This document shows, one piece after another, positions 1 through 14,990 of a DNA stretch of 64,000 nt. A program made the translations under genes and the position numbers. The notes under the pieces were generated by a model. It was given only the letters and a program-made list of their open reading frames with translations, was not told where the DNA came from and did no database searches. Every line of letters begins with the position of its first letter. Within the stretch, counting starts at the first letter, position 1. Origin of the DNA: a virus. Location: positions 12,070 through 76,069 of the IMG/VR virus record IMGVR_UViG_3300028837_003734. The stretch is one strand, 5' to 3'.

Positions 1-642
1 ATAACCTATGCTATTTATACCCTGCCAATCCCGATAGAAGCCGAAGAGTCAAAATACTTTATTATGACTTCGACGGCTTATAGTAATCACCAAAATTGTA
101 TTGCTGATAAATGGCGGGATGGCAAAACTGCAACTGGGACCCCTATAAGGGAAGGTATTGTAGCTATTAATGTGGATCTGATTGATGGTAAATGGGTAGT
201 TAAAAGTCCTCTCAAACTTGGTCAAAAGATATATATTGAAGGAATGGGATATTTTAGTGTAGAAGACACGGGGCCATTTACTGAGAAAGATTTTCATTTC
301 GATATCTGGAATCTTGATGTCTATAAAGAAAATTATGAACAGGCCAAAGAATGGGGAATTAAAAGAATCAAAGTTTATGTATTAGGGGGGATTAAAAGAA
401 TGAGAAGAGATGAAACAGTACGGGAAAGATATAAAAGATGGTGGGAAGGGAAATATTGTAAGTTGGCAAAACAAGACAGGAAATTCAAATACGTACAAAC
501 GGCAGAGTTCATTGGTCCTCCAAGCGGTGTTTATGGCACTGTAATTCTTCATTATTTAGATGGTACTTTTGAACACGTTATTCCATTTAACCCGAATGCA
601 TTCAAGCCAAGAAAAATGGATGTTGAGGTGGAGGATGAATAA
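1..642 (+). CDS. 3D-domain (MltA-like) protein, 5'-truncated; reads through into an apparent second cistron (MRRDETV...)
   Basis: STAYS, TATGTPIREGIVAIN, GQKIYIEGMGYFSVEDTG and LDVY motifs are typical of 3D domains; frame is open from base 1. Confidence 0.75.
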   Translation: MTYAIYTLPIPIEAEESKYFIMTSTAYSNHQNCIADKWRDGKTATGTPIREGIVAINVDLIDGKWVVKSPLKLGQKIYIEGMGYFSVEDTGPFTEKDFHFDIWNLDVYKENYEQAKEWGIKRIKVYVLGGIKRMRRDETVRERYKRWWEGKYCKLAKQDRKFKYVQTAEFIGPPSGVYGTVILHYLDGTFEHVIPFNPNAFKPRKMDVEVEDE

Positions 643-7673: not shown

Positions 7674-8516
7674 GGGGCGGAGTACTATTGGTATGTTATG
7701 TCTAAAGAGCTAATAGAAGAGGCATGTCTCTGTCCTAGTGGACCGGAAAGCTATAATAAAATTGCTTAAATTGCTACAATAAAGATGCTTCCGGTAGAGG
7801 ATCGTGAGGCAGAATGCTAAAGGAATGGTGATATAAAAAAGCTTGTAATATATCTGCTTTTGCCTCCCAAAAAAAAGAAAATTGAGAGATAGAACGCTAA
7901 TAGGGAACTGTAGACTGGAGAATTGCTACTAAATATATGCTTCTATTATTAGATGACAGAAAGATCAAAGAGATGGGCAGAGAGCTAGGATGGTATTGAT
8001 TTATTTAGTTGGCGAATGCCTCTGTCCGTCTCTAAGGATGGGGAGGCGGAGTACTGAAAAACATTTTATTCCGAAGATAGATAAAAGCCTTATGTCTCTG
8101 CCTAAATCTCCTCGGAAAGCTAAAAGGAAGATGCTTAACATGCTATTAGCGAGGTTACTTCCGAGAAGAAGATACTGTGGGCAGAATGCTACTAATTCGA
8201 TATCGATAGACTAAAGAATGTTTGCTTCTGCCTTAATAAAAGCTGGGACAGGCAAAGAGCTAAAATTATAATGACTTATTCGTTTAGGCCAAAATTGCCT
8301 TTTGTCTATCTTAGATATTAGAAAAAAAGGGAAGGAGAACTATTATAGCATTATATTCGAAGGGATTACTAATAGAAATATGTCTCTGACTGACAAAACG
8401 GAAAGTTAAAGCGATAATGTTTAATGTGCTGATCAAGAATTGCTTCCGAATAAAATACTGCAGACAGAATGCTAGCGTAAGAATACGAAAAAGCTATTTA
8501 TAGATTGCTTCTGCCT
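7674..8516 (+). ncRNA. TIGR-like stem-loop guide RNA array, 12 units
   Basis: Units at 7674, 7742, 7806, 7889, 7969, 8044, 8111, 8179, 8250, 8334, 8399 and 8462; each is stem-(C/T)TA-N9-T(G/A)-loop-(C/T)TA-N9-TG-stem with unique 9-mers (units 1, 3, 6, 7 partly degenerate). Confidence 0.85.
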
Positions 8517-8542
8517 CGCTAAAGAAAGAAAGGTGATTTAAA

Positions 8543-9475
8543 ATGTATTTTGTTAAATGGTCCATTAAAAAGGAATTAAAGGTCTTTGATCTCGCGAATG
8601 AGAAATCCAAAACCATGGCCCCGAGCGTCGGAGAATTCTCCAAATTTCTGGATAAGATTGAAAAGGAAAATTCCTTCTATTTCGAGGAAGGTGGCGGAGA
8701 CTCCTTTAAACTCTTAGCTAGGAGAAGGGGCCATCAGGTATTTACACTGCCGGGAATCAGAACTAAGGAGTGCCGGGAGAACCTGAAGCTACCAAAAACA
8801 GACAAGAACGACGCTTTTGCCGTAAAACATTTAATTAAGGAGCACCCTGAAGATTTTTATGAATTCAAAGAGCTAGACGAAATGACTGCCCGGATCAGCA
8901 TAATATTCAAAGAGCGTGCTGATACTGAAAAGATTATGGTGGCGACTAAATTAAGGCTGTTCGCTCTAAAGAATAGATTAGAATTGGTGAATCTGAACGG
9001 ATACGAGAAAGAGGCGGTGGAGAAAAAGGAGGCAGTTATCCAGGCCCTAGAAGAAGATTTCGAACTTCAAACTAAACTATTACAAGCAGAAGTAAGGAAA
9101 CATCCTGTCTGGAAGGATTATCTAAAGGGGATAAAGGGAGTCGGACCTGCAGTAGCCGGTGGCCTGATAACCGGTATTAAAAGGGCTTCCCGGTTTAGCG
9201 ATAAGTATGCCCTGAGACATTATGCCGGAATGGTAGCCAAGAAGGGGAATCAGAGATTTAACCACCAATTGAAGAGGGCATTATTTCATTTTGCCGAACA
9301 GGTTATACGACAGAATACTCCGATCTGGCGAAAGCTATATGATGATATGAAGATTTTTTATGGCAATAAACACCCGGATTGGAGTAAAGGCAAGATAAAT
9401 AATTACAGCAAAAAGTTTATAGAAACACGATTCTTGAATGAATTATTCGAAGAGATAAAGATGGTGGAGAGATGA
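8543..9475 (+). CDS. tasR: TasR-like protein (RuvC-like + coiled-coil + Nop domain; IS110-related)
   Basis: FYFEEG and KTDKNDA (IS110-type DEDD), LKGIKGVGPAVAGGLI...RF...ALRHYAG (Nop/IS110 C-terminal domain); no serine loop; embedded in the dual-9-nt array. Confidence 0.8.
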   Translation: MYFVKWSIKKELKVFDLANEKSKTMAPSVGEFSKFLDKIEKENSFYFEEGGGDSFKLLARRRGHQVFTLPGIRTKECRENLKLPKTDKNDAFAVKHLIKEHPEDFYEFKELDEMTARISIIFKERADTEKIMVATKLRLFALKNRLELVNLNGYEKEAVEKKEAVIQALEEDFELQTKLLQAEVRKHPVWKDYLKGIKGVGPAVAGGLITGIKRASRFSDKYALRHYAGMVAKKGNQRFNHQLKRALFHFAEQVIRQNTPIWRKLYDDMKIFYGNKHPDWSKGKINNYSKKFIETRFLNELFEEIKMVER

Positions 9476-9904
9476 TGCTAAAAGCAATGTGCCCTTAGGC
9501 TAGAGTATGATTGCTCATCTCCGATAAAAAAATGGAAAGTTGAAAATGTTAGGATGTAAATGTGAATTAGCATATCATTAATAACTTGTTGCTTTTTGAC
9601 TTTCTAACTGAGGGGCCGGGTTATAAGGAATGTTAGATATTGCATGTAATAAAATATTTACTGCTGGTCTTGTGCCTCCTCATAATCCAGTCTGAGCTAC
9701 TGTAACGGAATAATATAGGGAAGGGATAAGGAAATGAAAATGGTGGAGAGAGGCTGACAATGAGAGGCTGACAATGACGAACTGAGCTGTTGAGATGACG
9801 TTATTTTTAATCTGCTCTAAACAGAATGATATAGGAAAAAAAAGAATAGAGAGATAATGCTACAGATGAAGTGCTTTTAAGCTAATTAGAATATGCTTAT
9901 TTCT
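9466..9904 (+). ncRNA. Downstream continuation of the TIGR-like array
   Basis: Clear units at 9466-9522, 9534-9605 and 9850-9904; degenerate units near 9610-9682 and 9745-9820. Confidence 0.75.
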
Positions 9905-9923
9905 AAGAAAAGGAGGAATAAAT

Positions 9924-14039: not shown

Positions 14040-14990
14040 ATAAAATTGATGAAAATTAAATAACAATATAATGCTCCTGCAAGAGCATTAGAATGTTATT
14101 AAAAATTGATGAAAAATAAAGATATGCCTAAAAATGAAGTTCTGTAATGCTTATTATGTAAGGCTTTCGGAGTGCAAAAAACAAAATTAATTGTACCTCT
14201 AGAAAAAAGACTAAAAATATTGAAACGAAACGCTAAAAAAGTATAAAAAAAGAGAAGTACAATTTGGGTTTGTAAGGGGTCAAACGCAGTGCTCAAAAAT
14301 ATCTTATTTTATTTTTAAGGAAAAAAACAGCATTAAAAATGACCTCTGCAAAACTCTAATCTACACCTTAAAAAAAAAAAAAACGAAATTCGGAAAATCA
14401 CAAAAAAATGAGCATTAGAATCGAGTCTTGCAAAAACAAGATCTAATGCTCCAAAATCTCTTAAAAATATTTTAAGGAAAATCTGAGCATTAGAAATGAG
14501 TCTTGCAGAACCGAAATGTAGTGCTCTAAAAATGCTAAAAATAAAAATAGGGATTTTTCGAGAGATAGAAATAGCCACCTGCAAAACCGAATTCTAGATC
14601 TCTTTTTTTTCCCGGAAACTAAATTTAAAAATTCTGAAAACGAAAGACGTTTTTTAACCTCTTGCAGGAGCATTAGAAAGACGATAGAAAAAGCACGAAA
14701 AATAAAATAAGGGAATTTCTGCGGGTGCTGAAACGCTTATAAATAAAGAGTTACAAGACACTAAAAAAGGTTTTAATTGTACTTCTCTAAAACTACGCCA
14801 AAAATAAAATAACTAACGGTAAAAATGAAGGTAAAAAAGAGATGTAGGTTTTGGGTCTGCAAGGGGTCAAATGCAATGCTCGAAAAAACCTTAAAATATT
14901 TTTAAGGAAAAAAAGAGAAGTAGTTTTACTGTTTGCGAATGACAGAATGTTGCTGCCCAAAATATTGTAAAAATAAAATAAGAAAATTTG
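14040..14990. repeat. Non-coding array of 42-43-bp imperfect palindromes centred on TGCA, with A-tract spacers
   Basis: Example GAGCATTAGA-N9-TGCA-N9-TCTAATGCTC at 14410; related units at 14252, 14328, 14485, 14560, 14839 and 14915. Confidence 0.75.

Follow-up and report, generated by a model that had tools for sequence, protein, structure and literature searches.

The 64,000-nt window analysed here (bases 12070-76069 of a 76,069-bp IMG/VR virus record) carries, at window positions 7674-9904, an array of 16 hairpin units surrounding the gene tasR, and we consider it likely that this locus is a stem-loop TIGR-Tas system whose effector has probably been disarmed. TIGR-Tas systems, found in 2025, target DNA under RNA guidance, are compact, do without a protospacer adjacent motif and are of interest as genome tools. 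The units hold two short spacers each, set between recurrent boxes inside a covarying stem, and the protein groups with TasR in sequence and in predicted fold. A lysine of single origin, K5, occupies the position of its first catalytic aspartate, and some guides are conserved in relatives while others have been replaced. Every feature that we examined fits the published description of stem-loop TIGR-Tas systems, so that no new principle is involved. What the locus offers is a natural comparison: a phage effector with Lys5 that lies one residue from relatives having the full catalytic tetrad, accompanied by 16 guides and more than 20 related arrays.

Anatomy of the array

A scan for pairs of half-sites that together had no more than two box mismatches, were separated by a 3-30-nt loop and were enclosed by arms forming a duplex of -7 kcal/mol or lower recovered 14 units from the 1,418 non-coding bases that flank tasR, compared with a mean of 0.58 and a maximum of 3 in 200 shuffles. 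Manual curation aided by the orthologous units of relatives raised the number to 16, all on the + strand, with U1-U12 upstream and U13-U16 downstream of tasR (Table 1). This bears out an earlier reading of the DNA from its letters alone (the sequence-only reading), which had described about 16 dual stem-loop units of the form CTA-[9 nt]-TG in this interval; two of the example starts that it quoted, 7742 and 7889, are right, and the third is 9851 rather than 9850. With no more than one box mismatch allowed, nine matches fell in the array flanks, one within tasR, two on the remaining ~61 kb of the + strand and one on the entire - strand. The single half-site CTA-N9-TG has 16 of its 55 + strand matches in the 64-kb window within 7.7-9.9 kb. 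The units are thus strand-specific and co-oriented with tasR.

Each unit runs in the order closing stem, CTA, 9 nt, TG, loop, CTA, 9 nt, TG, closing stem, and the consensus written as RNA is 5′ arm, G, CUA, 9 nt, UG, loop, CUA, 9 nt, UG, C, 3′ arm, with CUA (box C) and UG (box D) dominating at both half-sites, as binding by a symmetric dimer would require. In the stem register, the base preceding box C pairs with the base following box D, and about eight further pairs follow beyond a bulged base on the 5′ side; this 1-nt bulge, two bases before box C (-2), is conserved among units. In 39 units from five loci, 318 of 351 cells (91%) were paired in the bulged register, whereas the same units without the bulge had only 202 paired cells, and permutation of the arms between units (1,000 trials) left 231 paired on average and 255 at most. 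Every stem position in this set showed several pair types, G-U included. The closing stems therefore covary with G-U allowed, which points to RNA. Short loops (8-9 nt) mostly have C at the 5′ and G at the 3′ end, in mirror image of the G-C pair that closes the stem, making the two halves of a unit pseudo-symmetric, while longer loops follow no such rule. A global minimum-free-energy fold of the flanks was uninformative.

The statement that the 9-mers change from unit to unit with boxes and spacing constant holds in general, with exceptions. Several units have variant boxes (TTA, CTG, ATA or TTG as box C; TA or TT as box D), the second spacer of U7 is probably 10 nt long, and that of U1 may be 12 nt.

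A box-like unit is also found within tasR, at 8911-8973 in the region that encodes the coiled coil (CTG-N9-TG, 7 nt, CTA-N9-TG, with the flanks AGAGCG/CGCTCT). Its stem falls outside the canonical register, and its synonymous diversity, 0.23, lies just a little below the mean of 0.30 for the gene.

The effector groups with TasR

The closest known structure to the tasR product is that of TaTasR, solved as a complex with tigRNA and DNA (9MTY; PMC12045711). A single-sequence search of the PDB placed 9MTY_A at the top (E 3e-13), and a profile search using 25 relatives gave E values of 4.5e-24 for TaTasR, 1e-6 for TasH and 6e-3 for IS621. The AlphaFold2 monomer, computed from a 65-row alignment, had a predicted local distance difference test (pLDDT) score of 93.4 and a predicted template modelling (pTM) score of 0.88, and Foldseek ranked 9MTY first for this model (E 4.7e-13), followed by IS621, TasH and archaeal Nop5. 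The model comprises a five-stranded N-terminal domain, long helices at 110-146 and 154-186, and a helical C-terminal domain, whose final helix (282-309 of 310 residues) leaves no C-terminal extension. Comparison with TasR, Nop5 and IS110, as the sequence-only reading had suggested, thus put TaTasR ahead of IS621, TasH and Nop5 by profile as well as by structure. Its assignment of the locus to the TIGR-Tas architecture is further upheld by TIGR_Tas_endo being the best match among NCBIfam models and by the anatomy of the units. The protein groups with TasR and not with IS110.

A homodimer model makes its contacts through residues 117-182, with an interaction prediction score from aligned errors (ipSAE) of 0.60, the best control reaching 0.00; the runs agreed in at least 94% of contacts, and the partner pLDDT was at least 86. 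Of 30 proteins whose structures were solved as pairs, 20 attained the mark applied to ipSAE, as did 1 of 23 solved as single chains. Because a similar complex, the TaTasR dimer of 9MTY, has already been solved, the result for the homodimer may come from likeness to it.

A lysine at the first catalytic position

The N-terminus of the window protein reads YFVKWS where relatives have YA[VI]DWA. In a profile of the N-terminal domain, the motif AVDW was aligned with residues 9-12 of TaTasR, so that position 5 corresponds to TaTasR D11, and the RuvC tetrad of the window protein consists of K5 at the first Asp position followed by E48, D87 and D90, i.e. three of the four acidic residues. Among 65 full-length relatives, position 5 is Asp in 50 and Lys in 15, E48 never varies, and D87 and D90 hardly do. 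A maximum-likelihood tree unites the 15 Lys sequences in one branch (support 100/100), nested among the Asp sequences, and a single change therefore suffices to explain them. A sequencing error is excluded, since every member of the clade has the Lys, and its codon (AAA) differs by two bases from each of the two Asp codons.

The D11A substitution in TaTasR abolished DNA cleavage (PMC12045711, sections 6-7). CsTasR, which has R8 and V126 at catalytic positions, and PateTasR, in which R91 fills the catalytic pocket, do not cut DNA; both bind it and repress transcription (bioRxiv 10.64898/2026.09.09.750476). Based on the equivalence of K5 to D11, on the D11A result and on the inactivity of the substituted stem-loop TasRs, we predict an RNA-guided DNA binder that is probably dead as a nuclease. 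The IS110-like RuvC motifs that the sequence-only reading had recognised, together with a Nop domain, are accordingly complete in three of four positions only, and a binder is likelier than a cutter.

The sister clades (L003, L004, L005 and L007; 50 of the 65 relatives) retain the DEDD tetrad in full, Asp5 included, and L003 and L004 also showed canonical units. Both stem-loop TasRs tested to date are catalytically dead (bioRxiv 10.64898/2026.09.09.750476). The full tetrad beside stem-loop arrays suggests that active stem-loop TasR nucleases may exist, and the sister clades may be candidates for them as judged from their residues.

We propose that the 16 units would be transcribed on the + strand, probably together with tasR, whose stop codon lies in the stem of U13. 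Each unit would then fold as a hairpin, its stem ending in a G-C pair and a pair between the C of box C and the G of box D, with one base bulged, and its interior would offer two 9-nt spacers, each between a box C (CUA) and a box D (UG). A TasR dimer joined by the coiled coil would bind one processed unit, and each of the two spacers would pair with one 9-bp half of an 18-bp DNA target, the halves being adjacent and the strands opposite. Such a complex would most likely bind without cutting, as a programmable repressor or blocker.

Guide conservation and replacement in relatives

Searches for related loci yielded 10 from viral and 24 from metagenome contigs, and their arrays were compared unit by unit because gain and loss of units disturbed a global multiple alignment. 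Even loci whose proteins are only 36-52% identical to the window protein have units of the form CTA-N9-TG ... CTA-N9-TG, closed by the same G/C pair. The 20 related loci of the Lys5 (K) clade that were scanned share scaffolds, and the 14 with at least 1 kb upstream of tasR have 7-12 detectable units there. In the related phage G001, which encodes a 90% identical protein in a syntenic genome, the array aligns unit by unit with that of the window. The spacers of U2 and U4 are identical in the two phages, and those of U9 and U13 differ by one base. In U3, U5 and U12, the stems and boxes are the same and 5-6 of 9 bases are changed per spacer, and in place of U6-U8 G001 has units with other stems.

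The unit immediately 5′ of tasR (the U12 position) uses one scaffold, aggcagaatg ... cttctgcct, in 21 loci, which carry five discrete spacer pairs; three of these five alleles have similar A-rich loops. All units taken together, the 21 loci comprise more than 40 spacer pairs. Differences per site at this position amounted to 0.44-0.47 for spacers, 0.12 for boxes and 0.17-0.25 for stems. In U13, the unit that contains the stop codon, the spacers differed at 0.17-0.22 per site and the loop at 0.42. The conservation of the U13 spacers and the swaps of pairs at the U12 position indicate purifying selection on some guides and, for others, exchange of both spacers together with the scaffold left unchanged. 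The array is also present in contigs from three other sediment studies (2019 to 2024): two show no difference over 7934-9907, and the third covers it in part, with 3 differences in upstream pieces. This indicates that the array is stably inherited. The spacer pair of U16 is kept in four relatives, exactly in two and with 1-2 changes in the other two. A contig of run X9, from a related population, skips 9604-9840, and the degenerate stretch at 9684-9849 may hold remnants of units.

Guides that are conserved and guides that are replaced bear on the nature of the targets and on the origin of new spacers. We tentatively suggest, as a combined history about which we remain doubtful, that a single Asp-to-Lys change made a full-tetrad TasR lineage into a DNA binder and that its arrays renew their guides by swapping both spacers on a kept stem, boxes and often loop. 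If so, the five alleles on one scaffold would point to a route of spacer replacement that preserves the scaffold. To our knowledge, no spacer acquisition mechanism has been described for TIGR-Tas.

Searches for targets

Targets were modelled by joining spacer A to the reverse complement of spacer B, in that order and with gaps of 0-2, and the opposite order served as control; the choice follows from the C-5 cleavage rule and the 8-nt 3′ overhang that have been published. The phage's own genome (76 kb) had a single target with at most one mismatch, that of U3 (AAGGAATGG + reverse complement of TAATATATC), which matches at 17 of 18 positions at window 239-256 (+) in the open reading frame (ORF) 64-642. 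The frequency of such an own-genome match among composition-matched random guides was 0.26%, which amounts to about 4% for sets of 16 guides (p about 0.04), and 240 re-paired combinations of the real spacers gave none. The mismatch lies at base 4 of spacer B, which derivation from the published cut-site rule places in the seed, and seed mismatches are deleterious for cleavage by TaTasR (PMC12045711). Neither phage's guides had a target with two or fewer mismatches in G001, which lacks an equivalent of the U3 match. The U3 match is a lead only.

Exact targets in the viral collection were found for U8 and U13, on three scattered contigs each, and in the genome collection the exact U13 target occurred on 31 contigs from unrelated phyla. 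These counts are about what chance would give for an 18-mer, by our own estimate made without a control pattern. An Omnitrophota genome with one of the U13 matches was considered as a target and rejected, two more guides giving only 3-mismatch matches there, which equals the reversed control. The 18-mer search called for by the sequence-only reading, which had conjectured about 16 targets, perhaps in rival phages or host genes, thus produced no convincing natural target in the phage's own genome, in G001, or in the viral and genome collections.

Alternative explanations

Several points weigh against a disarmed TIGR-Tas effector, and some of them bear on whether it is disarmed at all. Besides the outcome of the target searches, the TIGR_Tas_endo score of 78 bits is below the curated equivalog cut-off of 100, units with variant boxes may be non-functional, and no RNA runs are listed as holding the window's DNA, so that we infer transcription and processing of the array. 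Inactivity caused by K5 is likewise a prediction drawn from residues, and E48 and D87 are invariant in the K clade and D90 nearly so, which could reflect residual or altered catalysis or merely a structural role. The effector might therefore still be a nuclease or nickase within the same TIGR-Tas system, either because Lys5 is tolerated or because E48, D87 and D90 are enough, and the phage would then cut rival elements or host DNA. A RuvC domain as conserved as the remaining protein, and sister clades with the full tetrad beside stem-loop units, would suit such an enzyme. It is nevertheless the less likely state, given that the equivalent D11A change abolishes cleavage by TaTasR (PMC12045711), that neither CsTasR with R8 nor PateTasR with R91 cleaves DNA (bioRxiv 10.64898/2026.09.09.750476), and that the 65 relatives reveal no compensating acidic residue specific to the K clade.

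The hairpins might also not be guides but structured repeats, such as protein-binding sites, terminators or recombination sites, beside a domesticated IS110-like gene, with CTA-N9-TG acting as a motif at the DNA level. In favour of this, promoter and terminator scans gave site numbers at the level of shuffles, and an Rfam search of the array found no family match at E up to 1. We nonetheless think this very unlikely: the pattern keeps to the strand of the gene, the covarying stems with their G-U pairs point to RNA, the geometry of boxes and spacers is that of experimentally processed stem-loop tigRNAs, and the motif accompanies TasR homologues down to 36% identity. Least probable of all, to a degree that makes it nearly negligible, is an IS110-family mobile element with a transposase that uses nearby bridge-like RNAs. 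Annotation does lean that way, since Pfam Transposase_20 passes its cut-off with the tasR product (E 4e-7), DEDD_Tnp_IS110 matches weakly (21 bits versus a cut-off of 29) and PHROGs labels relatives as transposases; the NCBIfam, Pfam and PHROGs models would call tasR a transposase or leave it unnamed. However, the NCBIfam IS110 model, NF033542, has a cut-off of 140 bits and gives 47 here, and the first Asp is missing. The alignment to IS621 ends at chain residue 240 of the latter and is followed by KKGNQRFNH, and the region of the nucleophile serine, which we take to be residue 241 of IS621, is shortened here to the serine-free KKGNQRF, in line with the absence of an IS110 serine loop noted in the sequence-only reading. 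The gene is present in a single copy, the locus is syntenic in G001, and the RNA is an array of 16 units and not one two-loop bridge RNA; neither grouping with IS110 nor, in the record and G001, a transposed unit, which that reading had named as grounds for rejecting its proposal, was found. A CRISPR array was rejected as well: it needs identical repeats of at least 23 nt and ~30-nt spacers, and the longest direct-repeat families here are imperfect and reflect the scaffolds of the units.

Comparison with known systems

Stem-loop arrays, which have palindromic flanks instead of edge repeats, were described by Faure et al. 2025 (PMC12045711). In a published stem-loop TIGR unit, a palindromic stem encloses two copies of the series box C, spacer, box D, separated by a loop (PMC12045711 section 9; bioRxiv 10.64898/2026.09.09.750476), and the agreement of this architecture with the units described above supports the TIGR-Tas interpretation. 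The catalogue of Xu et al. 2026 lists 2,559 stem-loop arrays, found among 20,096 tas loci in public genomes and metagenomes, with units upstream, downstream and inside of tas and with stem-loop Tas proteins that are without a Y/H processing loop (bioRxiv 10.64898/2026.09.09.750476). The present locus may already be within that catalogue. In L006, a relative with a 36% identical protein, three canonical units (ggtg-CTA-N9-TG ... CTA-N9-TG-ccc) lie at 515-855, within the span of the TasR match (391-1479), and coincide with a Gly-rich insertion in the proteins of that subgroup; they fit the intragenic tigRNAs of Xu et al. 2026.

Compared by description only, the PateTasR and CsTasR systems share with the present one tandem hairpins in which box C and box D (UG) bracket each of two ~9-nt spacers, units that flank tas on either side and extend into its 3′ end, and a compact protein of ~310-330 residues with RuvC, coiled-coil and Nop domains and no C-terminal Y/H processing loop. 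The basic residue at the first catalytic position, K5 here, has its counterpart in R8 of CsTasR. Box C is CUU in the PateTasR system and CUA here, and both systems belong to hosts of the candidate phyla radiation (CPR) bacteria, in contrast to a tailed phage of marine sediment. Here, moreover, one of four catalytic residues is changed while close sister clades keep all four, and RuvC and Nop are free of large insertions. TaTasR (9MTY; PMC12045711), the best match in sequence and structure, has the same domain order, the same AVDW / E / KxDxxD positions, a coiled-coil dimer, UG as box D and 9-nt spacers downstream of box C. Unlike the window protein, to which it is ~22% identical, it has D11 and cuts DNA, and its dual-repeat array has fixed edge and loop repeats, 36-nt tigRNAs and CCA as box C.

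The array of PlTasA, from a Peromyscus gut contig, is also of the stem-loop type and split into sub-arrays, and its units are expressed and processed singly (PMC12045711 section 9; bioRxiv 10.64898/2026.08.11.744272), although its effector has no RuvC domain at all. IS110/IS621 (8WT6), the second-best structural match, resembles the tasR product in its RuvC-like N-terminus, coiled coil and Nop-like RNA-binding domain, and differs in features absent here, namely a serine nucleophile loop, a single bridge RNA and signs of mobility. Archaeal box C/D small ribonucleoproteins (Nop5, 3PLA/3ID5) likewise combine a dimeric Nop-domain protein with an RNA that has two guides between C- and D-type boxes. 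The structural match to Nop5 is, however, weak (E about 3e-3, Foldseek), and the present units have CUA and UG in place of RUGAUGA/CUGA boxes, no kink-turn, and predicted DNA rather than RNA targets.

Features of the locus and its genome

Table 1. Guide units, gene and other features of the tasR locus (window positions; L numbers denote related loci).
Feature	Position	Strand	Description
U1 guide unit	7674-7735	+	stem GGGGCGGAGTA / TCTCTGTCC; CTA-TTGGTATGT-TA ... ATA-GAAGAGGCA-TG; alternatively CTA + 12-nt spacer; orthologue in L002
U2 guide unit	7742-7795	+	CTA-TAATAAAAT-TG, loop cttaaattg, CTA-CAATAAAGA-TG; zero box mismatches; spacer pair recurs in several relatives
U3 guide unit	7806-7866	+	CTA-AAGGAATGG-TG ... 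TTG-TAATATATC-TG; second box C TTG also in L002 orthologue
U4 guide unit	7889-7946	+	CTA-ATAGGGAAC-TG ... CTA-CTAAATATA-TG
U5 guide unit	7975-8027	+	CTA-GGATGGTAT-TG ... TTA-GTTGGCGAA-TG; strongest closing stem, -21.7 kcal/mol
U6 guide unit, variant boxes	8042-8102	+	CTG-AAAAACATT-TT ... ATA-AAAGCCTTA-TG; identical unit in L015
U7 guide unit	8111-8165	+	CTA-AAAGGAAGA-TG ... CTA-(T)TAGCGAGGT-TA; register of second spacer set from relatives
U8 guide unit	8179-8232	+	CTA-CTAATTCGA-TA ... CTA-AAGAATGTT-TG; spacer pair kept in 7 related loci
U9 guide unit	8247-8306	+	CTA-AAATTATAA-TG ... TTA-GGCCAAAAT-TG
U10 guide unit	8329-8390	+	CTA-TTATAGCAT-TA ... CTA-ATAGAAATA-TG
U11 guide unit	8398-8449	+	TTA-AAGCGATAA-TG ... 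CTG-ATCAAGAAT-TG
U12 guide unit	8462-8516	+	CTA-GCGTAAGAA-TA ... CTA-TTTATAGAT-TG; final unit 5′ of tasR
Shine-Dalgarno-like AGGTGA	8531-8536	+	6 nt 5′ of tasR ATG; read from sequence
tasR	8543-9475	+	310 aa; RuvC-like ~1-105 (K5, E48, D87, D90), coiled-coil helices 110-186, Nop-type C-terminal domain 188-309
U13 guide unit	9466-9522	+	CTA-AAAGCAATG-TG ... CTA-GAGTATGAT-TG; 5′ arm overlaps last codons and stop codon of tasR
U14 guide unit, TTA boxes	9534-9605	+	TTA-GGATGTAAA-TG ... TTA-ATAACTTGT-TG; closing stem 12 bp
U15 guide unit, weakened stem	9623-9683	+	TTA-GATATTGCA-TG ... CTG-CTGGTCTTG-TG; L026 orthologue has perfect stem
Degenerate stretch	9684-9849	+	box-like fragments; 15-nt tandem duplication 9748-9777 (GAGAGGCTGACAATG, two copies); absent from some relatives
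U16 guide unit	9850-9904	+	CTA-CAGATGAAG-TG ... CTA-ATTAGAATA-TG; zero box mismatches

The carrier of the locus is a tailed phage from marine sediment. Genes of the record matched a DnaB-like helicase, a head maturation protease, a DNA methyltransferase and a major tail protein, and nearly all long ORFs of the window lie on the + strand. The tasR gene, of which the 76-kb record has one copy, has the same neighbours in G001. A tRNA scan of the window found no tRNA gene, and representative bacterial and archaeal genomes contained no relative of the TasR protein; neither search named a host. Elsewhere in the window, at 14040-14990, ~1 kb of non-coding DNA with no adjoining Tas-like gene contains repeated dyads of the form GAGCATTAGA-N9-TGCA-N9-TCTAATGCTC, spaced ~75-80 bp apart, which could be an origin or another structured-RNA array.

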